DNA from: Chiloscyllium plagiosum
Lineage: Eukaryota
Reading direction: 5' to 3'
Length of the DNA: 64,000 nucleotides
Assembly (NCBI RefSeq): GCF_004010195.1
Contig: NC_057718.1
Location: forward strand, 55,212,196 to 55,276,195
Under the pieces are notes generated by a model. That model saw only the letters and a program-made list of their open reading frames with translations, was not told the DNA's origin and did not search any database. The position numbers and the translations under genes are program-made. Below are positions 4,848 through 63,110 of this stretch, piece after piece (the stretch's first letter is position 1; each line of letters starts with the position of its first letter).

Positions 4848-5163
4848 GGGCGGCACGGTGGCTCAGTAGTTAGCACTGCTGCCTCACAGCGCTGGGGACC
4901 CGGGTTCAATTCCTGCCTCCGGCAACTGTCTGTGTAGAGTTTGCACATTCTCCCCGTGTCTGCGTGGGTTTCCTCCAGGTGCTCCGGTTTCCTCCCACAG
5001 TTCAAAGATGCTCAGGTTAGGTGAATTGGCCATGCTACATTACCCATAGTGTTAGGTGCAGGGGTAAATGTAGGGAATGGGTCTGGGTGGGTTGCTATTC
5101 GGAGTGTCAGTGTGGACTTGTTGGGCCTTAGGGCCTGTTTCCACACTGTAGGGAATCTAATAG
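4848..5163 (+). mobile_element. HE1-type V-SINE
   Basis: tRNA-like head (box A tggctcagtagtt, box B gggttcaattcc), V-domain gagtttgcacattctccccgtgtctgcgtgggtttcc, CR1-like tail gggcctgtttccacactgta. Confidence 0.93.
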
Positions 5164-5165
5164 AA

Positions 5166-5450
5166 TGAGCAAATCTCCCTGCTAAGATATTGGTCCCTTT
5201 CTAGTTTACGTTAGACCCGTCCCTTTTGAACAGATCTGTTCTATCCCAAAAGACATTCCGATTGTCCAAAAACTTGAATCCCTGAACAATACATCAGCTC
5301 TTCAGCCATTTATTTTTCTCCTTTAGCTTTTGTTCCTTCCTTCATTTGATTTTGGCATTGGGAATAAACCAAAAATTACTACTTTTAACGTTCTACTTTT
5401 TTAATCTTCTACCTAACCTCTTAAATTTCCCTAAGAATGTCATTCCTACC
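5166..5450 (-). mobile_element. Decayed CR1 ORF1 (SGNH-esterase-like) fragment
   Basis: Reverse complement aligns with the CR1 ORF1 region at 41760-41900 (tggctga.gagct...gcagggagatttgct). Confidence 0.65.
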
Positions 5451-5460
5451 AATGTTTCTT

Positions 5461-5753
5461 TAGATTAGATTACTTAGTGTGGAAACAGGCCCTTCGGCCC
5501 AACAAGTCTACACCGACCCACAACCCACCCAGATCCATTCCCCTATATTTATCCCTTCACCTAACACTATGGGCAATTTAGCGTGGCCAATTTACCTAAC
5601 CTGCACATTTTTGGACTTTGGGAAGAAACTGGAGCACCCGAAGGAAACCCACGCAGACACTGGGAGAATGTGCAAACTCTTGGGGCGGGAATTGAACCCG
5701 GGTCTCTGGCGTTGTGAGGCAGCAGTGCTAACCACTGTGCCACCGTGCCGCCC
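5461..5753 (-). mobile_element. HE1-type V-SINE with short internal deletion
   Basis: Reverse complement of the HE1 pattern, (tagat)n tail; lacks the cacagacagtcgcc segment. Confidence 0.92.
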
Positions 5754-13055: not shown

Positions 13056-13711
13056 TGTTAACTTGTTAAGATATTCTTAATTTCACCATAAGTTAACATT
13101 CTCTCTTGATGGCGATGGCCATTGCCTTGCATTTAAGTGATGTGAATATTCCTTGCCGTGTTTAAGCCCAAGCCTTGATGTTGTCCAGGTCTTGCTGCAT
13201 TTGTACATGGACTGATTTCGTATCTGAGAGTCATTAATTATAGTGGACATAGTGCAATTGTCATCAAATATGCCTATTACCAATCTTATGATGGAGGGAC
13301 AGACATTAATGAAGCAGCTGAAGGTGGTTGGCATAGGACATTTCCCTGAGGAACTCCTGAGGGGTGTCCTGCAACTGAGATGACTGGCCTCCAACAGCCA
13401 CAGCCATCTTCCTTTGTGCCAGATATTGACTCCAACCAGCTGTGAGAGTATTCCATCTGATTCCCTTTGATTCCAGTTTTACTAGCTCCTCGATATCAAG
13501 GTCAGTCACTATCACCTCACCTCTAGGATTCAACTCTTTTGGCCATGTTTGAACCAAGACAGGAATGAGGTTGGGAACTGAGTGGTCCTGATAGAACCCA
13601 GTCAGAATATCAGTGAGCAGATTTTTGCTGAGTGAGTGCTGCTTGATAGTAGTATTGCTAACACCTTCCATCACTTGACTGATAATCAAGAGCAGACTGA
13701 GAGCAGTAATT

Positions 13712-13840
13712 TTATCTCTCCACCCTGCAGGCACTCTGCTTCTATTCCTGATGAAGGGCTTTTGCCGGAAACATCAATTTTCCTGCTCCTCGGATGCTGC
13801 CTGACCTGCTGTGCTTTTCCAGCACCACTCTGATCTAGAC
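13712..13840 (+). mobile_element. Penelope-like terminal fragment (family P1)
   Basis: Same sequence as the P1 arms at 16801-17078; flanked by the exact 16-bp direct repeat actgagagcagtaatt (13696-13711, 13841-13856). Confidence 0.8.
13745..13778 (+). ncRNA. Minimal hammerhead ribozyme motif (PLE-type)
   Basis: CTGATGA, stem ggc-tttt-gcc, GAAAC, ATC. Confidence 0.55.
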
Positions 13841-15213
13841 ACTGAGAGCAGTAATTGGCTGAGATGCATTTGTCTTGCTTTTTGTGTCCAGGATGTATCT
13901 GGAAAATGTTCAATTTTGTCTGGTAGATGCCAGTGTTCTAACTATGCTGGCTAGGGAATGTGGCTAATTCTGGAGGACGTCTTCAATATTATTAACACAA
14001 TGTTATCAGAGCCTTTGCAGTAAGTATCCAGTGCCTCCATCCATTTCTTGCCATCACATGAAATGAATTGAATTGGCTGAAGGTCGGCACCTATGATGGT
14101 GGAGACTGTGGAGGAAGCCAAGATGAATCATCCACTTGATGCTTCTGGCTGAAGATTGTTGTGGTATCTTTGGTATATTTGCATGGCTTTTCCCTTTGTT
14201 TATGATTAAATGTTGGAAAAGAATGTATGAAAGGGTTTGTTTTAATATTTTAACTATGTAAAGCTATCATTAATTTCAAACTGGAGTTGAATGACAAATT
14301 TGCAAGCAATAATTCTGTTATTAATGTTGCAATTTTTAAAATAAACTGTTAAATTAGGTAAATCCCAAATTAACCCTTTAGGTTTAGGCTCTGAAAAAAC
14401 CTATTTCTTCCAGGCTTTGGGCATCACCACTAAAATCTTTGGAGGTCCATTGAAATTTTGAGTAATGTACAACTCATCAAGGTCAGTGACAAAATGGGAG
14501 CAAGTGAAGCAACATGGCTGAACATATGGAACATCTCTCCCTTCTTCAGTGGCTTGGTGATCATGCAAGTTTATGACAATGGCAGTGTGTACAACCCTGA
14601 GGTCCTAGTTATCACTGAAGAAACTCAGCAGAACGGTTTTCCGAATGGAGTTTGCAATATGGCCATCATGTGCCTGCAAATTGGTTATCCAAACATTATC
14701 TCTGTACCACATTCCATCATCAACAGCTGCAGGTGGGGGCAGCCTGAATTTGCAGAACGTGTCATGAGTCTGCTGATGTCACTGTATATTTTACTGTATG
14801 TGATTTGTTTTTTTGTAGATCAAAGCCAAAATATTATCTTTTGGTTTCTAACCTTGCTAATTGTTAATCTTTTGTTTCTGGTCATGTGATTTTTTTTTTT
14901 GGAGAAAATATTAACAATTTAGCAGGAAGCTGGTTGGATCAGCTCAGTGCAGTTAATGTCATTATTGGCCACCTTCTGTGTTGACTTGAAATGCCTGTGT
15001 CTGTTGATCAATTTTAGTATTTACATGGCAAAATAAATCTGCTTTTTAGCTAAAAGAAATCACTGGCTCCCTATGGATTTCCATTAAGTTGTAGAATAGT
15101 CCTTCCAGAGGTTCAACACAGTGTGTTTAATAGTAATAACAGAGTTCTGTTTCAACAATCCCTTACATGTAATTTTGCAACAGAATTAGGTTCTTCATTC
15201 CACACCTTAACTG

Positions 15214-15410
15214 AGTTAAAAATCACACAATACCAGGTTATAGTCCAAACAGGTTTATTTGAAAGCACTAGCTTCTTCATCATGTGGTTCACAGGAACGG
15301 CGCTTCAAAAGCTAGTGCTTCCAAATAAACCTGTTGGACTATAACCTGGTGTTGTGTGATATTTAACTTTGTAAACCCCAGTCCAACATTGGTACCTCCA
15401 AATCATGATA
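15214..15410. mobile_element. Penelope-like inverted terminal fragment (family P2)
   Basis: gttaaaaatcacacaataccaggttatagtcc...aagcactagct followed by its reverse complement; same terminus as 20052 and 46990-47100. Confidence 0.8.
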
Positions 15411-16124: not shown

Positions 16125-16590
16125 AAGTTTGAGTCTATTCTCCATGAAGAAATAGCAAGGCATCTAGATAGAAATGGTCCTATTGGGAAGACGCAACATG
16201 GGTTCATGAAGGGCAGGTCATACTTAACTAATGTACTGAAATTCAATGAAGATATGAGCACGGTGGGCAGTGGGGACCCAGTAGGTGTAGTGTATCTAGA
16301 TTTACAAAAGGCATTTGACCAAGTGCCGCACAAAAGGCTGCTGCATAAGATTAAGATGCAAGGTGTTACGAGCAATGTATTAGCATGGGTAGAGGATTAC
16401 TTAACTAACAGGAAGCAAAGACTGGGATAAATGACTGCTTCTCTGGTTGGCAATCCGTGACAAGTAGTATGCCTCGGATCAATATTAGGACCACAATTAT
16501 TCATAATTTTCATAGATGATTTGTAGTTCGGCACCACACGTAGTGTGTCAAAGTTTGCGGATAACACCAAGATAAGTGGTACAGCAACGT
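16125..16590 (+). mobile_element. CR1 RT fragment
   Basis: ORF 16206..16430 (GRSYLTNVLKF...VVYLDLQKAFDQVPHKRLL) followed by FADNTK. Confidence 0.88.
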
Positions 16591-16800
16591 TTCAATATAC
16601 TTTAATTGCTGTTTAACTGTGTGCATCTATAAAGCCTAAGATCCCACCTGCCCTTTAAACACCTTTCTCAATCTGGCTTCAATGATTAGTGCACATGTAC
16701 CCCAGACTTTTAGAACATAAGAACTAGGAGCAGGAGTAGGCCATCTGGCCCTTTGAGCCTGCTTCTCCATTCAATAAGATCATGGCTGATCTTTTTGTGG

Positions 16801-17078
16801 AGAAAGTGAGGACTGCAGATGCTGGAGATCAGAGCTGAAAATGTGTTGCTGGAAAAGCGCAGCAGGTCAGGCAGCATCCAAGGTACAGGAGAATCGACGT
16901 TTCGGGCATAAGCCCTTCTTCAGGAATCAGAGGAGGACTTAAGCATAATGTAAAGCATAATGGAAGCTGTTAAGCTTAATCATTCCTGAAGAAGGGCTTA
17001 TGCCCAAAACGTTGATTCTCCTGTTCCTTGGATGCTGCCTGACCTGCTGCGCTTTTCCAGCAACACATTTTCAGCTCA
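16801..17078. mobile_element. Penelope-like inverted structure (family P1)
   Basis: ~100-bp near-perfect inverted arms (about 16827-16927 and 16982-17078); 13-bp direct repeat gatctttttgtgg at 16788-16800 and 17079-17091. Confidence 0.85.
16891..16927 (-). ncRNA. Minimal hammerhead ribozyme motif with intact core
   Basis: Minus strand attcCTGAAGAagggc-ttat-gcccGAAAcGTCgattc: CUGANGA, stem II, GAAA, GUC triplet. Confidence 0.65.
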
Positions 17079-18744
17079 GATCTTTTTGTGGCCTCAGCTC
17101 CACTTACCCGCCCTCTCACCAAAACCCTTAATTGCTTTACTGTTCGAAGCATTATCCATCTTAGCTTTAAAAACTTATTGAGGTAGCCTCAACTGCTCCA
17201 CTGGGCAGGAAATTCCATGGATTCACAACCCTCTGGATGAAGAAGTTCCTTCTAGATTCAGTCTCAAATCAGCTTCCCCTAATTTTGAGGCTATGCCCTC
17301 TTGTCCTAGTTTCATCTGCCAGTAGAAGTATCCTCTCTACTTCTAACTTATCTATTCCCTTCATAATTTTATATGTTTCTCTGAGATACCCTGTCATTCT
17401 TCTAAGTTCCCATGTATATAGTCTACTAAGTCTCTCCTCATATGCCAATCTCTTCAACTCCGGAATCAATCCTCCTCTGCATCCCCTCCAGTGCCAGTAC
17501 ATCCTTGCTCATGTAAGGGGACCAGAACTGCATGCAGCACTCTAGGTGTAGCCTCACCAGCACCTTGTTCAGCTGCAACATAGCCTCCCTGCTTTTGAAC
17601 TCAAACCCTTTACCAATGAAGGACAAAATTCCATTTGCCTTCCTAATTACCTATTGCACCTGCAGACCAACCTTCTGTGATTTATGCACAAGGATGCACA
17701 TGTCCTTCTACAGAGCTGAATTTTTTTTTACCATTCAAGTAATAGTCCTTTTTACTGTTATTCCTACCATATTTATTAACATGGTACTCCATTGGCCAGA
17801 TCTTTGCCCACTAACTCAAACTATCTATGACCCTTTGCAAAGTTTCACAGTCCTCTGCACACTTCAACTATGAGGGTAGATTGGAGAAATTAGAATAGTT
17901 TACTTAGAGAAGAGGTTGAAATGTAATTTGTGAGAGGTGCTTAAAATAATGAAGGGTCCACACAGAGCGTTTGAGAGGCAGAGGCTATGTATTTAAAACG
18001 AGCAACTAGAATCTGGGATGCATTGCTTAAGAGTGTTTTGGAGGAAGATTCAATTGTAGCTTTTGAAAGGGAATTAGTTATGTATTTATTAAAATTTAAT
18101 ATTAAAAGAAAATGTGCAAAGGAAGGGAGTGATCTAGTTGAATTAGTCTTGTAGACATCAGTGTTTTGAATTATTTCTTTTTATACTGCAACTATTCTGT
18201 GATTCCTTTCTTTCTCCTTTGCATTGTTTCATTTGAGAGGTGGCGCTTTCACTGCATTTCCTGGATGGAATCTGCCCATAGTTACTGGCATACTCTGGGG
18301 TGGCTTCTCAGCCACAAATGATATGTGGATGGATTCAACCAATGTTAAATGGGAAGTAAGCTTCAACCAGAGCATAGTGTGGTGAAAGTAATGTGAAAAT
18401 AGAATATGCAAGTTGATTTCTTACATTAAGTGCTCTTTAGTTATTCATTGGATGTCGATTGCTTGCAATGTCCTAAGAAATATGCTTTGATGTAGTTTGA
18501 TTTAAATTATTCCAATTTCTTGCTTGCTTGGTTTCCAGTGGTAGCATGGAAAAAATAACTTTAGTATATTTGTAAAAGTAAGGTTAGTTAAATTCTAGTA
18601 TGTTGTATGATCCTTTATTGCATTATGTAAGCATTTTAATGTCAACATCCATGAGAAAAAGTTGTAAGAAATAGGAGTACATTTTGAAACCTTGTGCTTT
18701 ACTTATCATGCTTACTTCATATCCTGGATTCTTATAAAGATAGA

Positions 18745-19190
18745 AAGGAACATAGGAATTGGGAGCAGGAGTAAGCAATTCAGCACTTCGAGCCACTCTG
18801 CCAGTTGACATGATCATGGATGATCTTATCCTGGTCTCAGTTCCACTTCCTGCCTGTTCTACATATCCCTTTATCCCCTTTTCAACAGAAACATTTTTTT
18901 TTCTTGAATCTGTTGATTGATTCTGCCTCCACTGCATTCTGGGGCAGTGAGTTCCACAGACACTCAATCGTCTTAGAGAAATAGTTTCTCCTCATGTCAG
19001 TTTTGAACTTAAGTCCTCATCCTATATCTATGACCTCTTGTTTGAGACTGTACCAACGTCCACTGACATTTTATATACCTCAATCACATCCCCCCCACCT
19101 CATTCTTCTGAATGGCAGCAAGTACAAGCCCAAGCAGTTCAACCTTGCCTTGTATGACAGCCCTTTCATCCCTGAAATCAGGAACTATGG
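18745..19190 (-). mobile_element. CR1 3' fragment
   Basis: Tail gaacataggaattgggagcaggagta; gagttccacaga...cactgcattctggggc is the reverse of the WNSLP...AVEA region. Confidence 0.75.
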
Positions 19191-20090
19191 CCAAGCACTT
19201 GCCAAATTGAATATTCTTGCTTTGGCTTAACATTCCAAACGTGAAGAAAATCCTTTGTTAACAAACAAAAATAAAACTCATTCCATGAGATTTACAAATA
19301 AGTAAAATATATAAAATTTGTGTGGAATACATGTTGTGATGAGTTTTGACCTTCGTCCTCAAAGGTGAGTGCATTAGATGATAGTATGTGCTGAATGAAT
19401 TAGTATTATTAACGTTGTGTGTGGTCAGAATAATATGTAAAGCATAATGGAAGCTGTTAAGCTTACATCATCAACACTCAATTGAGAGAAGGAAACTGGG
19501 TTAATGATTAACTTTTACAAAGAATACATTGTCCTGATTTTTTAAGGAATTGAAATTTAATAGAACTACGAGTGTTATAAATGATAATTAAACATGTCTA
19601 AATTATGAGACAAGTTCAGATGTGTAATGGTTCCCTCTGCACCAACTAGCTGTTTAAAGGAATCAGCATTGGATTTTCAGGTGAGGTGCTTTTAACTACT
19701 TTTGCTGCTGCAGAGTGAGTGAAGGTAATGTTTCACTGTTGTTGGAGGACTTCAGAAAAGTTTCTGGAGTCAGGGAGTATTACTGAATTTTCTTTGGGAA
19801 TTTAGGAGACCTGGCAGTAGAAAGCCTGTGTTCAGTAATGGGAGTTATACTTGCAGCATCTCTTGGGCTGTGTGAAAGGGACAAGGAGCATAGGCAGCAG
19901 AACTGGAAAGCTGTGAGCAAATTTGAGAGCAGTAGGATTATTTTTAAAAAAGTCCATGAACCATTTTCTCCATGTCAATATTAGCCAAGTGTTCTAAGAA
20001 ATTACGATGTGAGGAGGTGACTAGGTCTGTAGATGAGGATAGTGCAGTTGGCACAAAGTTAAAAATCACACAGCACACAGGTTTATTTGG

Positions 20091-20130
20091 AAGCACTAGC
20101 TTTCGGTACACTGCTCCTTCATCAGGTGGT
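20091..20130 (-). ncRNA. Minimal hammerhead motif (P2)
   Basis: Minus strand cacCTGATGAaggagc-agt-gtaccGAAAgCTAgtg; stem II partly mutated; cac/gtg can close stem I. Confidence 0.55.
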
Positions 20131-21167
20131 TGTGGAGTATAAGCTAATAAGACACAGAATTTATAGCTAAAGTTTACAGTATGATGCAACTGAAATTATA
20201 TATTGAAAAAGACCTGGATTGTTAGTTAAGACTCATCTTTTAGAATGACCATGTTGGTTTCAGTTCTTTCATATGTAAATCCCAGAACTTTATTTCAAAG
20301 TTACATTCTCAAGTGAACTTTAGCAGTTGGTGCCATGTCAGCCCAGATAATGCTTTGAAGGTGTAAGGTGCCTGTGTGTGCCCCAATGTTCAGACTGATT
20401 CTATTTCTAAAAAAGGGATTTACAGAATCTTACATGAATTCATGCAGTTTTTGAGCAAAGTAAAGTGTAATTCTGCAAGTACAAATTCACCCCACAAACT
20501 TGGGGGGGTGGTTTGAGTGTCTGTGAGAGAGTGTGTATGAGTGAGTGTAAAGGGGTATAAAACTGAGAGGGTGCGTGTGTGGGCGTGAGTGGGACTATAC
20601 ATGTAAGCATATGAGTGAGAGCTTGTGTAGTCTGTAGGTGTGTGTGTCTCTCCTGTAGTGTAACATGAATCCAAGGTCCATAGATTCAGGACAACACCAT
20701 ACAACCTTGTCGTGGCAGACGCTGCAAGATGTGTCAGATTGTCAACACGGATACCGCCATTACACGTGGGGACACCACCCACCATGTATGCGGCAGGTAC
20801 TCGGGTGACTCAGCCAACGTTGCCTATCTCATACGCTGCAGGAAAAATGCCCGTGGCATGGGACATTGGTGAGACCGAGCAGCGGCTTTGGCAACAGATG
20901 AATGGACGCCGCACAACAATCAACCAATAGGAGTGTTCTCTCCCAGTCGGAGAACACTCAGCAGTCTTGGACCTTCGGCTGACCATCCTCCAAGGCGGAC
21001 TTTGGGACAGGCAACAACGCAGAGTGACCAAGCGAAGGCTGATAGCCATGTTCGGTACCCATGGGGATGGCCTCAACCAGGTGACTCCATGCCAATCTTA
21101 GCCTAGTGTTCTAAGGAATTACAATTTGAGGAGGTCACACTACAGGTGACCCTACTGTATTACATAC

Positions 21168-30688: not shown

Positions 30689-31382
30689 ATTTTGTTTGTA
30701 TTTTCCTTTTCTTTAAGAAAAATGTATCGATGTTAAAGAATATCTGTAGATTCATGGGAATCTGTTTCAATGACTAATCACTATGGCAACCAACTGTAAA
30801 AGAAAATCCAGTATAGGGGTTTGGACATGGCCAGAACCAGGAAACTCTGCACATAGTGGGTTAGGAGGAGAAAGGTGGGTGGCACAGTATCACTTTTGGT
30901 GCATGTGTGGAGATGTCCTGAGGGGGGTGAGTAGGCTGTGCAGAAGAGATTCAGGGTTAGATGTTAGTGAGGATGAGTAAGAGTGGGGACGATGTTGGCA
31001 GGAAATGGTGGGTACAGCAGCAGAAATAATGAATGTGAGAAGCTGGTCCTTTCACTGGCAGAGTGGTGAATGTCATTGATATTCTTCTTACATTCCTCAG
31101 ATGTTTGAGACTGCACTAGCCTGGATGATAACCCTGGTCCAGGTTGGTGTGTTTCCTGTAGGTTGGCCTGGGAGAAAAGGATGTCCTGCCTCTGCATCAC
31201 CCCATCCCCATCAGCAGCATCTCCATGTTCCTGCCCACAATGAGAGGTACCAGTTTTCCATTGTCCTGTCTAGAGCCAATGTCAGAGACCATGCAGGGCA
31301 ACTCTGGACCGACCGCTCTTGGTCTGGGTGCATAAGGTCTTAAAGATAATGCTGCTTCATGGATGTTGGTCAATTCTGGGAT

Positions 31383-31925
31383 AAAGTGAAGACTGCAGAT
31401 GCTGGAGATCAGAGTCGAAGAGTGTGGCACTAGAAAGGCATAACTGGTCAGGCAACATCCGAGGAGCAAAAGATTTGAAGTTTCGAGCATAAGCTCTTTA
31501 TCAGGAACATCAGGGTGGCCCAAAAGGGCTGAGAGATAAGTGGGAGGGGAATGGGGCTGAGGGGAAGGTAGCTGGGATTGCGATAGGTAGATGAAAGTAG
31601 GGGGTGATGCTGATAGTTTGGAAAGGAGGGTGGAGTGGATAGATGGGAAGGAAGATGGACAGGCAGGACAGTTCAGGAGGGCATTGCCGAGTTGGAAGGT
31701 TGAATCTGGTATATGATGGAGGGAGGGGATATGAGGAAACTGATGAAATCCACATTGATGTCTTGTGGTTGGAGGGTCCCAAGATGGAAGATGAGGTGTT
31801 CTTCCTTCAGGCGTTGGGTGACTAGAGTTTGGTGAGGATAAGGCCCAGGAATTGCATGTCCTTGGCGGAATGGGAGGGGGAGTTAAAGTGTTCGGCCACA
31901 GGGCGGTGGGGTTGTTTAGTGCATT
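31383..31925 (-). mobile_element. Penelope-like element (family P1): GIY-YIG C-terminus and terminal repeat
   Basis: Minus strand reads PVAEHFNSPSHSAKDMQFLGL (PLE endonuclease C-terminal region), continuing into the P1 terminus. This ties the short P1 repeats to a PLE. Confidence 0.82.
31471..31508 (-). ncRNA. Hammerhead-like motif variant (P1)
   Basis: Minus strand CTGATAAagagc-ttat-gctcGAAAcTTC; stem II has a compensatory pair change relative to gggc/gccc copies; core mutated. Confidence 0.45.
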
Positions 31926-37555: not shown

Positions 37556-38246
37556 CAGAGGAAACCCGATTATCCAAACGAGATGGGCAGGCACTATTTC
37601 GTTCAGTTAATCGATTAAATGCCTTTCCTCTGGGGCTCAGAGTTTTTTCAGTCTGCTCCCTGTTCAGCATATGAGGCAGCAGTACACCGCGTGCAAGCCC
37701 TTGCTGCCAACCCCGTCCAACACCACCCCACATCTGCCCCCAACCCCGTCCAACACCACCCCCACAAGCCCCCAATATTGCCCCCTCCGCCTCTCTCCCC
37801 CCTGTGTGCTCCCCCCACCATCCATGCCCCCTTTCCAGGGCAGCCTGACTGGAAACCAACAAGACTACTGCCGCTGCTACTGCCTTTTGGGTGGTGAGTC
37901 TCCAAATAGCACACGCACAGTCTCTCACACCCAAAACTTTTTACTGCAACTTTTTGACAGGTTCTACTTTTGCCCTGTACAAGACAATATTGGAGAGATT
38001 ATCTGGGGAAGGGGGGTTTAGGGTAAACCTCTCTGTAGAACTCCAGGGAAAGTGTAGGGAGAGAGAGAGAGAGGGAGGGAGGGCGGGAGGTCAGTCATTT
38101 GGAGACGGTGTCTGTTAATCACTAAACAAAAGACACGGTCAGTGTTGGAAACGCATCTTTGATGTAATGTTTCTATTGGGACCTCGAGATCTCCTTCGCA
38201 TAATCCGATATTCGGATAATTGATATTCGGATAATCGAGGTTCCTC
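37556..38246. mobile_element. Tigger/pogo-like (Tc1-mariner) non-autonomous DNA element
   Basis: ta|cagaggaaacccgattatcc ... ggataatcgaggttcctc terminal inverted repeats with TA on the left; second copy at 44803. Confidence 0.75.
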
Positions 38247-38393: not shown

Positions 38394-38590
38394 GTCAAAA
38401 AGTGTGGCCTTAGAAAAGTATAGCAGGTCAGGCAGCAACCGAGAAGCAGAAGAGTTGAAGTTTCGGACATAAGCCCCTCAGCAGGAATTCCTGCTCCTCA
38501 GATGATTCCTGACCCGCTTTTTTTTTTCGAGTGCCACACTTTTTGAAACTGATCTCCAGCATCTGCAGTCCTCACTTTCTCGTGGTCTCC
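38394..38590. mobile_element. Penelope-like inverted fragment (P1)
   Basis: Opposed P1 arms; flanking acattgcttgactga (38379-38393) and acattgctggactga (38591-38605). Confidence 0.78.
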
Positions 38591-44802: not shown

Positions 44803-45349
44803 CAGAGGAATCTCGATTATCCGAATATCAAATTATCTGAAGGAGGTCTCGAGGTCCCGATAGAAATATTACATCAAAGAGGTGTTTCCAAAACTGATCA
44901 TACCTTTTGTTTACAATGATTAAAAACGAACTTGGCTTACTGAAATGCTGCCGAGAACAGCCCTGGACATCGATGGGAGCCCAGGCACCATCTCCAAATG
45001 ACTGACCTCCCGCCCTCTCTCTCTCCCCGCACTTTCCCTGGAGTTCTATACAGGGGTGTACCCTGAACCCTATTTTCCCAGATACTCTCTCTAACATTGT
45101 CCTGTACAGGGCAAATGTGGAACTTGGCAAAAAGTTGCAGTAAAAAGTTGTGTCTGCGTGTGTGCTATTTGGAGACTCACTTGAGATTTGGCAAAGGCAG
45201 TAGCAGTCTTACTGTTGGTGTCCAATCTGGCTCTCCTGGGGGTGGGCAGTGCAGTCGGGTTGGACGGGGAGCGAAGGCACGGACGGATGGGGGGAGCGGA
45301 ATATGGACTCGGGCGGGGTTGGACAGGGTTGGGGGGCAGACGGTGGAGG
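44803..45349. mobile_element. Second, inverted copy of the Tigger/pogo-like element, running into the gap
   Basis: ta|cagaggaatctcgattatccg; interior is the reverse complement of 37700-38246. Confidence 0.8.
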
Positions 45350-46190
45350 NNNNNNNNNNNNNNNNNNNNNNNNNNNNNNNNNNNNNNNNNNNNNNNNNNN
45401 NNNNNNNNNNNNNNNNNNNNNNNNNNNNNNNNNNNNNNNNNNNNNNNNNNNNNNNNNNNNNNNNNNNNNNNNNNNNNNNNNNNNNNNNNNNNNNNNNNNN
45501 NNNNNNNNNNNNNNNNNNNNNNNNNNNNNNNNNNNNNNNNNNNNNNNNNNNNNNNNNNNNNNNNNNNNNNNNNNNNNNNNNNNNNNNNNNNNNNNNNNNN
45601 NNNNNNNNNNNNNNNNNNNNNNNNNNNNNNNNNNNNNNNNNNNNNNNNNNNNNNNNNNNNNNNNNNNNNNNNNNNNNNNNNNNNNNNNNNNNNNNNNNNN
45701 NNNNNNNNNNNNNNNNNNNNNNNNNNNNNNNNNNNNNNNNNNNNNNNNNNNNNNNNNNNNNNNNNNNNNNNNNNNNNNNNNNNNNNNNNNNNNNNNNNNN
45801 NNNNNNNNNNNNNNNNNNNNNNNNNNNNNNNNNNNNNNNNNNNNNNNNNNNNNNNNNNNNNNNNNNNNNNNNNNNNNNNNNNNNNNNNNNNNNNNNNNNN
45901 NNNNNNNNNNNNNNNNNNNNNNNNNNNNNNNNNNNNNNNNNNNNNNNNNNNNNNNNNNNNNNNNNNNNNNNNNNNNNNNNNNNNNNNNNNNNNNNNNNNN
46001 NNNNNNNNNNNNNNNNNNNNNNNNNNNNNNNNNNNNNNNNNNNNNNNNNNNNNNNNNNNNNNNNNNNNNNNNNNNNNNNNNNNNNNNNNNNNNNNNNNNN
46101 NNNNNNNNNNNNNNNNNNNNNNNNNNNNNNNNNNNNNNNNNNNNNNNNNNNNNNNNNNNNNNNNNNNNNNNNNNNNNNNNNNNNNNNNNN
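45350..46190. other. Assembly gap (841 N)
   Basis: Run of n. Confidence 0.99.
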
Positions 46191-46235
46191 TGTGCATGTG
46201 GGTCTTTGTCTGTCTATATGTATCTGTCTGTCTGG

Positions 46236-46273
<38 letters not shown>

Positions 46274-46459
46274 TGAGTGCAGAGTGTCTTAAGTCTGTGA
46301 GGGGGTGAGTGTGGGAGTGTGTGTCTGTAAGGGTGTGTATGGGTGTCTGTATGCGTGTATGTGTGTATAGGAGTGCCTGTGTGTGTGTAGAAGTACCTTT
46401 GTGTGTGTGTATAGTGCAACGGTGGTCACTTATGACACTCTGCACTCACTATACACGCG

Positions 46460-46498
<39 letters not shown>

Positions 46499-47100
46499 TT
46501 TCTCACACTCCCAACCCCCAACCCAGACAGACAGACACACACACACAGACAAAGACCCACATGCACACATATATTTTGTGGGGTGAATTTGTACTTGCAG
46601 GGTTACATTGAAATTTGCTCAAAAACTGCATGCATTCATGTAGAACTCTGAGCTCAAAAATTGCAAGAATTTATGTAAAACTTCATTATTTCACTTTTTA
46701 GATTAGAATCAATCTAAATATCATGGCATAGACAGAGAACACAGGGGGCCAACACCTTCAACATATTGTCTAGCTATCACCATTGTTAACAGCTAACCCG
46801 AGAATGCTACTTTTTAAAAAAAGATTTTGTGATTTACACATGAAAGAAGTGAAACTATCACTGTATTCTAACAGATGAAAGGCTTAACAGACAATTTTTC
46901 AATGTATAGTTTCAGTTACATCACACTGTAAATTTTTGCTGTAAATTCTGTGTGTTAGGATTGTGCCCTCCACTACCACCTGATGAAGGAGCATCGCTCC
47001 AAAAGCTAGTGTGCTTCCAATTAAACCTGTTGGACTATAACCTGGTGTTGTGTGATTTTTAACTTTGTATACCCCAGTCCAACACCGACATCTCCAAATC
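46191..47100. mobile_element. Penelope-like element (P2): inverted GT/CA-rich UTR arms plus full terminus
   Basis: 46191-46415 is the reverse complement of 46445-46570; 46570-47100 matches 20052-20500 in reverse. Confidence 0.85.
46976..47011 (+). ncRNA. Hammerhead-like motif (P2) with GAAA mutated
   Basis: cacCTGATGAaggagc-atc-gctcc-aAAAgCTAgtg: perfect stem II, G>A change in the core. Confidence 0.5.
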
Positions 47101-51839: not shown

Positions 51840-52610
51840 ACAACTAACACACACTAGCCATGAGGTTTTGTTTACAAACAACAATAAAGTGGGAACACTC
51901 ATCCTTCGGCAGCTCCTGTAGATTGAAAATATGTTTCTTCCATTCTAGTTCACTTGGTTCTTGGACTGATAAGCCCTTCTTCAGGAAGGGCTTATGCCCG
52001 AAACGTCGATTCTCCTGTTCCTTGGGTGCTGCCTGACCTGTTGCGCTTTTCCAGTAACACATTTTCAGCTCTGATCTCCAGCATCTGCAGTCCTCACTTT
52101 CTCCTCTTGGACTGATAAGTCCAGTGTACAACCTGCCACATGCTGGGTAGGCAGTGTTAGAAGGGTTGGGTAGATCATTCATTTAGAAGTTTGTGCACTC
52201 ACTCCAAGGCCTGGACTTCAACTCAGAGTGTTCCTGACAAAGTCTGTCAATGTGTCTGATGCATTCCTGAGTGAAGCTTTTCCATTTTAGTTGGTCACAA
52301 GGCTGAAAGTCCCCTGCATTGTCAGGGGTATTTGCCTTCCTAGAAATTTTCCACAGTGACCAAAGTCTGGGTGGAACAGATGCTTCTGTCATGTGGTGTC
52401 AGGCATATGAAAGACATGTGGAGCTTGTTTAGTGTGTTTAGCATCTCAATGCTGGCTTGGTAGAGCATTCTGCTATTGGATCACCTTTCTTGCCACCACA
52501 TTTACAGGATCATGCAAAGGCACTGTTGGTAGATCTCCAATGCTTTAAGCTGTAGTTTGTCTGTTTTTCTGAAACATATAGGGAGCTCAGAGACCACGAT
52601 TATCCAGTAA
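51840..52610 (-). mobile_element. Decayed RTE-clade LINE 3' part
   Basis: Minus ORF ...QLKALEIYQQCLCMIL resembles RTE ORF2 C-terminal LK.LE.YHQRCLR.IL. Confidence 0.5.
51974..52104 (+). mobile_element. Penelope-like P1 fragment with small fold-back
   Basis: Near-identical to the 16801 arms; exact 15-bp repeat tcttggactgataag at 51959-51973 and 52105-52119. Confidence 0.85.
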
Positions 52611-57795: not shown

Positions 57796-58381
57796 GATTT
57801 TGGTTTGTTGCAATTAAAACAAAAATAGTGCTGGTCATGTTTACATGAGAGATCCGAATGTCTAATATCAATAAAACTAGGATAAAGACAGACAGCCTTT
57901 ATCTATTTTTAAAAATTTGAATTTTGAAAGCAAAGTATCTGAGGGAAATGTTAATAGGGAGATTAGGAGGGAGGTAAACTGCTAGTTTGAGGGTGAGGCT
58001 AATTGCCAACATAACGTACCCTTGGGAGTGAATTAATTGTTACTCGAGCAAGAGAAAGGACAGGATACAGGAAAGAATTAAGGAGAATGAGAGGAGTAAT
58101 TTAACAGGAAGCTAAGGGGATAGGGGAAATGATGCAGTGGGATTGGTAAAAGAAAAATACGATAGCTTGGGGTCAGGCGACACCTTCCTCAAATGTAGGT
58201 TGAATGTGTTGGTGACTCTGTTCTGTACTTAATCACCTGTCAATTCTTGTGCAAAAGACAAAGAAATCAGAAGTAGTTAATGAGAATGAAACATCAATAG
58301 AAAATGACACAGGAGGGGCAGAAAATTAGCAACACATGAAGATGAAGTCAAAGACTAACCATATTCCCTGGTCAATTAAGT

Positions 58382-58446
58382 ATTAGCAAAGTTTTTAATC
58401 TACTGGTCAATTAAGTATTGACCAGTAGATTAAAAACTTTGCTAAT
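58382..58446. repeat. Perfect 30-bp inverted repeat with 5-nt loop
   Basis: attagcaaagtttttaatctactggtcaat-taagt-attgaccagtagattaaaaactttgctaat. Confidence 0.95.
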
Positions 58447-62149: not shown

Positions 62150-62468
62150 TCCCTAGTGTGGAGGCAGGCCATTCAGCCCAAAAAGTCCACACTGACCCTC
62201 TGAAGAGCATTCCACTCCCCTAACCTATCCCTGTAACCTTGCATTTCCCATGGCTAATCTACCTAGCCTGTACATCCCTGGGCACTATGGGCAATTTAGC
62301 ATGGCCAGTCCACCAAACCATTACATCTTTAGATTGTGGGAGGAAACTGGAGCACCGGAAGGAAACCCATGCAGAATGTGAAAATGCCACACAGACAGTT
62401 GCCCAAGGCTGGAATCAAACCCAGGTTCCTGGCTTTATGAAGCTACAGTGCTAACCACTGAGCCACCA
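62150..62468 (-). mobile_element. HE1-type V-SINE (older), inside a CR1 remnant
   Basis: gtgtggaggcaggccattcagccc...cagtgctaaccactgagccacc. Confidence 0.85.
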
Positions 62469-62589
62469 TTAGTTAAGTGAACCTTCACTGAACAGCATCA
62501 TTTTCAGTTATTTATTTTCTTAAGCAAGAAGACTAAATCTTTATATGGTACTCCAGATGTGTTCTGACTAAGGCCTGTTACAACTGTGT

Positions 62590-63110
62590 GATGGTCACTT
62601 AGGTCAGCTGGCTGGATGGTTAGTTTGCGAATGCAGAGAAATGTTAACAAAGTGGGTTAAATTCCTGTACCCGCTGAGGTTACCATGAATCTCAACCTTA
62701 TCCCTTGCATGAGGGCGGCATGGTGGCACAGTGGTTAGCACTGCTGCCTCACAGCGTCAGAGACCCGGGTTCAATTCCCGACTCAGGCGACTGACTGCGT
62801 GGAGTTTGCACATTCTCCCCGTGTCTGCGTGGGTTTCCTCCGGGTGCTCCGGTTTCCTCCCACAGTCCAAAGATGTGCAGGTCAGGTGAATTGGCCATGC
62901 TAAATTGCCCGTAGTGTTAGGTAAGGGGTAGATGTAGGGGTATGGGTGGGTTGCGCTTTGGTGGGGCGATGTGGACTTGTTGGGCCGAAGGGCCTGTTTC
63001 CACACTGTAAGTAATCTAATCTAATGAGAGTGGCGACCTTCAAGGTAAACCACTACCAGTTGTTTTTAATGAGAAAGCAACCCTATAGGACTGTGGTGAT
63101 TTGCCACAGC
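62590..63110 (+). mobile_element. SINE family C interrupted by HE1
   Basis: Box B-like gggttaaattcc; continues after HE1, with atgag on both sides of the insert. Confidence 0.55.
62713..63024 (+). mobile_element. HE1-type V-SINE (young)
   Basis: Near-identical to the 24095 and 43838 copies. Confidence 0.95.

Follow-up and report, generated by a model that had tools for sequence, protein, structure and literature searches.

In the window, by which we mean the whole 64,000-nucleotide stretch that was analysed, the two inverted arms of a P1 insertion are joined by a filler whose longest part is identical to single-copy host DNA lying downstream. The data support the conclusion that this filler was copied from host sequence nearby, and that it is neither P1 consensus nor a common repeat. 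The two identical 31-mers, 16948-16978 and 19435-19465, stand in direct orientation and 2487 bp apart, and the copying ran from the downstream donor into the spacer of the insertion.

The P1 insertion comprises 278 bp, from 16801 to 17078, and is enclosed by a 13-bp TSD that surrounds the arms and the filler as a single unit (Table 1). Over 102 nt (16826-16927 and 16982-17083) the inverted arms are 96% complementary, and two of their four mismatches correspond to CpG decay. A tail is found on the left arm only, so that this arm extends ~25-35 nt past the end of the right arm, and a like pattern is seen at 38397-38581. The left arm differs from 51985-52102 at 4 of 118 positions and has further matches at 31379-31507 and 38489-38581. 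The right arm stops where the family has CTGATCT, which is also the start of the TSD and constitutes microhomology with the target. At their inner ends the two arms stop within 2 nt of one another in element coordinates, and no arm sequence is missing at the centre; the family's TC is retained in the right arm, and the GAGGA past the left arm matches the family continuation observed in loose contig ends. The insertion interrupts an older LINE-like fragment, presumably of CR1 type, for which the read depth over 17142-17890 reaches tens of thousands.

Table 1. Coordinates of the P1 insertion, its filler and the donor sequences within the window.
Feature	Position	Strand	Basis
TSD, left copy	16788-16800	+	Identical to 17079-17091
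Left arm: P1 pLTR end with ~25-35-nt tail	16801-16927	-	Similar to other P1 copies in the window
Five unmapped filler bases	16928-16932	+	Too short for assignment; ATCAGAG also in left arm, 16827-16833
Possible second templated piece, 11 nt	16933-16943	-	Identical to minus strand of 19008-19018
10-nt re-copy	16941-16950	+	Equals donor 19440-19449
31-nt exact donor copy	16948-16978	+	Equals 19435-19465
Right arm: P1 pLTR end without tail	16980-17078	+	Contig joints reach 16980
TSD, right copy	17079-17091	+	Identical to 16788-16800
Older multi-copy LINE-like fragment, interrupted by the P1 element	16713-17850	-	Read depth; similar to 18748 onward
Possible second donor, within older LINE-like fragment	19008-19018	-	11-nt identity, 420 bp from main donor
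Donor, single-copy host sequence	19435-19471	+	Contigs of species B and C

The insertion has the features expected of an endonuclease-bearing (EN+) Penelope-like element (PLE), namely inverted pLTRs within a TSD, a one-sided tail and a hammerhead motif, and the putative membership of P1 in this class rests on that structure together with the ribozyme motif. A minimal hammerhead-type motif is intact in the left arm (16896-16923) and consists of CUGAAGA, an unpaired A, a 4-bp helix II, GAAA, CG and UC. Its helix II is predicted to fold, and its core, unpaired base and G-C closing pair appear to fit the descriptor as given in the available part of PMC4209133; the part of 10.64898/2026.07.22.740005 that was available bears only on the link between pLTR and ribozyme. 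In the right arm, a G>A change at 17006 disrupts the GAAA core of the motif. Rfam gave no hammerhead match at the element, its eight weak matches in the window being of miRNA type and confined to 46.3-46.5 kb and 58.4 kb. The longest P1 copy, 31379-31915, contains ~60 frameshifted codons, presumed to be the end of the parent ORF, and we take these to resemble the C-terminus of a PLE endonuclease. Five candidates for this protein remnant were searched and none was significant: Pfam and homologue searches gave no usable match, the sole HMMER match was to a repetitive, apparently spurious ORF, and an Atlas search returned matches below 0.9 or none. Four P1 peptide motifs were likewise absent from the supplement of PMC8557442, and one P1 tail motif had no matches in viral, metagenome and genome contigs.

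The earlier note had reported an exact 31-nt copy in the spacer and had not recognised its source as a repeat. Direct comparison and BLASTN bore out the copy, and single-copy depth and self-BLAST bore out the character of the donor, whose one further BLAST match within the 64-kb window is the spacer itself. With BLASTN, the match grows to 37 columns (16948-16983 versus 19435-19471) with one gap and 97.3% identity (36/37). From base composition, the chance expectation of a 31-mer match is ~2e-13 per window and ~1e-8 per 4-Gb genome. There are 392 exact pairs of at least 15 nt in the window, 42 of them with unrelated flanks; 15 pairs with unrelated flanks reach 20 nt and, judged by reading, the pair at 16948 and 19435 is the sole one of these that does not consist of dispersed repeat copies. 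The spacer had been correctly placed between the arms, though at 54 nt (16928-16981) it was drawn too long: because the alignment of contigs from further P1 copies to the right arm begins at 16980, the non-element filler amounts to ~52 nt, 16928-16979.

We then turned to sequencing runs, of which 24 were listed and 18 contain the stretch, from three species coded A to C. Contigs from four runs were aligned on 16500-19700, namely X1 and X15 (species A, two studies), X5 (species B) and X9 (species C). Among the circumstances that would undo its reading, the earlier note had named a 31-mer belonging to the P1 consensus or to a common repeat, and the contigs and depths spoke against both. Depth over the donor bin (19389-19495) was 35, 14, 20 and 36 in the four runs, compared with 7-19 million over the arm, which together with self-BLAST rules out a common repeat. 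Past 16927, where the filler begins, 156-206 contigs per run depart from the reference with a common alternative continuation (agreement 0.38-0.40), and this other sequence rules out the P1 consensus. In the P1 family at least 800 contig joints have letters between their two sides (12 were viewed), which indicates that junction fillers are common in the family.

The donor is crossed unbroken by a contig of species B (18982-19700) and by a contig of species C (19425-19700, with a 3-nt deletion at 19468), coverage in which identity inside the 31-mer is not certain from the differences listed. Since the donor is present in species B and C, it arose before the species diverged, which makes the spacer the copy; the donor is thus older than the spacer copy, and it is intact. 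The local templating proposed in the earlier note holds. Species B and C diverge from species A by ~2.3-4.5% (27/972, 18/780 and 11/242), which is of the same order as the arm-to-arm difference.

In run X1 the contigs break at the donor: one runs up to 19464, and its successor begins at 19436. A simulated graph of the window with k=31, presumably the setting behind these contigs (the tool refers to 31-letter words), has the same breaks when the insertion is present and none near the donor when it is removed. As the X1 break coincides with the simulated one, the 31-mer has a second context in the reads, which speaks against an artefact of assembly. At four listed sites the sequence of X1 departs from that of the window, and this run may represent another individual or haplotype, or the assembly's own source. 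In run X15, from the same species, contig 18931-19537 is unbroken over the donor at low and patchy depth (4-14), and the discrepancy between the two runs may reflect insertion polymorphism or dropout. The unbroken contigs in X15, X5 and X9 are compatible with the presence of the insertion, since dropout may have occurred or one of the two copies may carry a substitution. The 32 pieces listed, out of ~420,700, include no contig over the spacer or over an empty site. One species C contig aligns from 17079 with seven unaligned bases before it, which fits an empty site, and a LINE paralogue would look alike.

Within the filler, the pieces listed in Table 1 overlap one another. The re-copy that had been noticed before, AAGCATAATG, is present, and it overlaps the 31-mer by ATG, which amounts to a 12-nt back-slip on ATG microhomology. 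Past the 1-nt gap, the donor match continues via ATCAT (16979-16983), of which TCAT is common to the right arm. Together with the five unmapped bases, the ATG back-slip and the TCAT exit make up a short, iterative, microhomology-primed patchwork, that is, a signature of Pol theta type. The 11-nt inverted piece overlaps the re-copy by AAG. Matches of this length arose within 500 bp of the donor in 54 of 3000 shuffles and for 0.6% of random window 16-mers (P = 0.006-0.018), the 500-bp region having been picked after the match was seen; the wider nulls gave 294 of 3000 within 3 kb of the insertion (P = 0.10) and 163 of 600 window-wide (P = 0.27). The piece is therefore suggestive only of a second templated segment. 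We also considered it as proof of a DNA template and rejected this, since a plus-strand molecule could yield both pieces. The spacer further holds a 6-nt inverted repeat (TTAAGC/GCTTAA) that lengthens the stem.

Inverted, 5'-truncated copies with a one-sided tail of 30-40 bp are standard for endonuclease-bearing PLEs, according to the available parts of PMC8557442 and PMC11167929, and the P1 insertion resembles them in its head-to-head pLTR ends, one-arm tail, TSD and hammerhead-type motif. It differs from the EN+ insertions described there in that its arms are only ~100-127 nt and in that its filler stems from host DNA 2.5 kb off, for which those parts describe no counterpart. Copied junction patches are known from other jumping genes, L1 among them. 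As far as the accessible portions of these reports go, 22 templated L1 insertions were typically <250 bp with a template within 15 bp of the site (10.1101/2024.08.27.596794), three L1 insertions carried sequence templated near the site, one of them with slippage (PMC11702581), and L1-associated RNA chimeras formed via a switch or twin priming have been catalogued (PMC13174262). Like these, the P1 spacer is short non-element sequence inside a TSD that duplicates nearby single-copy DNA, sometimes in the L1 cases in several pieces and with a slip. Unlike them, it belongs to another element class, is germline and is old enough to have collected substitutions. Its donor is also 2487 bp away, compared with the 15 bp typical of L1, a figure that is no defining limit in the excerpted source, whose supplements may contain longer-range cases.

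Inserts made by Pol theta joining are described, in the accessible text of PMC12426944, as patchwork and iterative, primed with minimal pairing, drawn from the break flanks and mostly <25 bp. The P1 filler shares the patchwork of small segments, the repeated priming on 3-4-nt microhomology and the few unmappable bases, whereas it is longer than these inserts usually are and its donor lies beyond the immediate flanks. In Adineta vaga, host DNA has been captured between Penelope pLTRs inside one TSD (PMC3846280), and non-element host sequence likewise sits between pLTRs within a single TSD in our case. The Adineta vaga captures, as covered by the available part of that paper, are spacers of 0.9-1.5 kb or a whole gene from elsewhere, between direct or solo pLTRs and with no local donor described, while the P1 filler is a junction patch of 52 nt with a nearby source. 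We found no published mapping of PLE junction fillers to local donors kilobases away in the literature searched, which lacked most subscription papers.

The explanation that we favour, with moderate confidence, is a DNA-templated filler made at integration, in which the ends of twin-primed cDNAs were sealed via local host DNA. The structure, the TSD, the donor, the direction of copying, the slip and the microhomologies are observed; the twin priming, the timing, the DNA template and the enzyme we infer. The element would have cut the two target strands at points separated by 13 bp, and reverse transcription on the element RNA would have been primed from both of the resulting 3' ends, one start lying at the tail end and the other at an inner site ~30 nt upstream, such that only one arm would receive a tail. 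For an anole PLE protein, the available part of PMC11167929 describes cleavage and extension of both target strands, with synthesis beginning at two RNA sites, one on either side of the tail; two such start sites would give two converging cDNAs, one tailed and one tailless. Both cDNAs would halt near the 5' edge of the hammerhead motif. Their 3' ends would then have the same sequence and could pair only through a central AT, the arrangement seen at 38483-38492 in the copy that lacks a spacer. During sealing, one end would prime on host DNA 2.5 kb off and copy 10 nt, slip back 12 nt on ATG, copy a further 31-36 nt, and finally anneal to the opposite arm via TCAT. A Pol theta-type host end-joining polymerase, or the element RT acting on DNA, would be the likeliest enzyme. 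If the right-hand DNA end were resected, the downstream, direct-orientation donor would become accessible to the left cDNA. The earlier note had envisaged synthesis jumping from the element to a nearby template and back; the patchwork with its microhomologies fits jumps, but a single out-and-back jump fits the tailed and tailless arms less well than converging cDNA ends do.

Several observations weigh against sealing via local DNA. The distance of 2.5 kb requires a long resection (2.4 kb) or a loop, and simple one-sided resection cannot yield both pieces if the 11-nt inverted piece is real. The TC and TCAT could derive from the donor alone and so do not date the filler, contig 18931-19537 of X15 is unbroken at the donor, and the P1-linked protein remnant was tied to PLEs by none of the searches. 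A template of host RNA at integration, with the element RT jumping from its own RNA to a nascent transcript of the locus, would remove the need for a 2.4-kb resection, and we regard it as rather unlikely. If each cDNA end made one jump, the direct and the inverted 11-nt pieces would both derive from a plus-strand molecule, at points separated by 420 nt, and the strand logic of a direct piece by the right arm and an inverted piece by the left arm would agree with this; the family continuation of the left arm also has ATGAGGA in common with the second donor. L1 junctions do acquire other RNAs via template switching or twin priming, as reported in the available parts of PMC13174262 and PMC11702581. 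The second piece on which this logic draws is weak, however, with P between 0.006 and 0.27 depending on a region picked post hoc, and TTAAGC or GAGGACT could also be read from the palindromic donor or from the element tail. A displaced DNA strand predicts the same orientation, and no host exon was found in 281 frames, although a long intron would be compatible.

Later repair, in which a perfect palindrome was inserted first, its centre broke and templated end joining added the filler, would give no retroelement role in the copying, and we consider it unlikely, though a serious rival. Palindrome centres are known to break, the copy at 38397-38581 is a spacerless palindrome and that at 51969-52104 a filler-free microhomology join, and a local templated inversion unrelated to PLEs (58368-58446) indicates that such repair occurs in the window. 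Against this, no arm bases are gone at the centre, the arms run to or beyond the point of shared bases in the palindromic join, and both continue with bases matching the family continuation. The arms have diverged at 4 of 102 sites and the filler is still identical to its donor, which fits either timing. Self-priming is very unlikely in our estimation: a single cDNA would leave its RNA, copy local sequence, fold back on TTAAGC/GCTTAA and copy its own arm, which corresponds to the out-and-back jump of the earlier note. It has been suggested for palindromic head-to-head Penelope junctions (PMC3846280, in the part available), and the inverted repeat in the spacer would lengthen the stem, but a fold-back on TTAAGC would mirror on the right the 11 filler bases next to the left arm, which are absent there, and the stop of the right arm at the tail boundary with target microhomology is left unexplained. 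It appears highly improbable that the match reflects chance, an artefact of assembly or gap filling, or copying from a third locus that was not seen. The 841-base N gap in the window, the difficulty of assembling hairpins, the unbroken X15 contig and the lack of a spacer-spanning contig among the 32 pieces listed would suit an artefact; the X1 contig ends fall exactly at the simulated break, chance accounts for ~1e-8 matches per genome, and a slip followed by a 1-nt gap is unlike what a gap-filler would paste. The possibility of an artefact raised in the earlier note is thus most likely not realised.

One junction does not establish when the filler was made, by which enzyme, or on which type of template. 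The completion of PLE integration and the formation of inverted ends are stated as open in the available parts of PMC8557442 and PMC11167929. When its donor can be mapped, a junction filler is a record of what the cDNA ends touched, and a single case settles nothing; the very large copy number of the P1 family and its many fillers mean that mapping them would give distributions of distance, side and strand, from which one could tell whether resected DNA, looped DNA or nascent RNA served as template. It is doubtful that borrowing a template at least a kilobase away is a regular sealing step of PLEs, in which the two RTs of a dimer, left with identical cDNA ends, would jump onto nascent host RNA (in the P1 case both onto one plus-strand molecule, at a spacing of 420 nt) and bridge the gap. 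If it were, thousands of shark fold-backs would record the loci transcribed when the elements landed. The P1 filler also represents a small route by which PLEs may duplicate local host sequence.

Five PLE-type fold-backs in the window were compared (15207, 16801, 38397, 39887 and 51969; the comparison left out 46191-46574, beside the N gap), and only in that at 16801 could a filler be traced to non-element DNA of the window. The 200-nt middle of the 39887 fold-back had no window match of at least 14 nt except a GA run. An older P1 fold-back at 38397-38581 is a spacerless palindrome joined at 38483-38492. A young one at 51959-52119 has a 15-bp TSD and an inverted arm of only ~19 nt whose first bases overlap the TSD, and its halves (51969-52104) are joined by microhomology. 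At 13696-13856, a single non-inverted P1 end without a tail lies between 16-bp direct repeats. Pieces of a second Penelope-like family occupy 15207-15375, which forms a fold-back, 20053-21140 and 46191-47100; an ORF remnant of this family near 20664-20927 presumably resembles a GIY-YIG region, and it had no Pfam match.

No host exon was found in the 281 translated frames searched, which came mostly from 371 non-repeat frames of at least 45 aa with ~90, chiefly the shortest, left out, so that a long intron is still compatible; at E<=0.001, the search gave RVT_1 in four frames and Exo_endo_phos in one. Exons guessed at 14.4-14.9 kb and 18.2-18.4 kb were dropped for want of Pfam support, and the latter has many differences in species B. 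At 58368-58446, a 30-nt inverted repeat without mismatches, its loop 5 nt long, overlaps a 17-nt direct repeat (58368 and 58403); it has the appearance of an inversion made by local template switching, with no connection to a PLE, and yields spurious Rfam miRNA matches. The 841-base N gap (45350-46190) adjoins a microsatellite-rich inverted repeat. Opposite-orientation copies of an element of several hundred bases, ~7 kb apart at 37894-38240 and 44812-45160, have exact stretches of 20-27 nt in common and are possibly DNA transposon ends. Inverted pairs of SINE-like copies, 250-330 nt apart, are found at 5106-5517 and 62373-62816.
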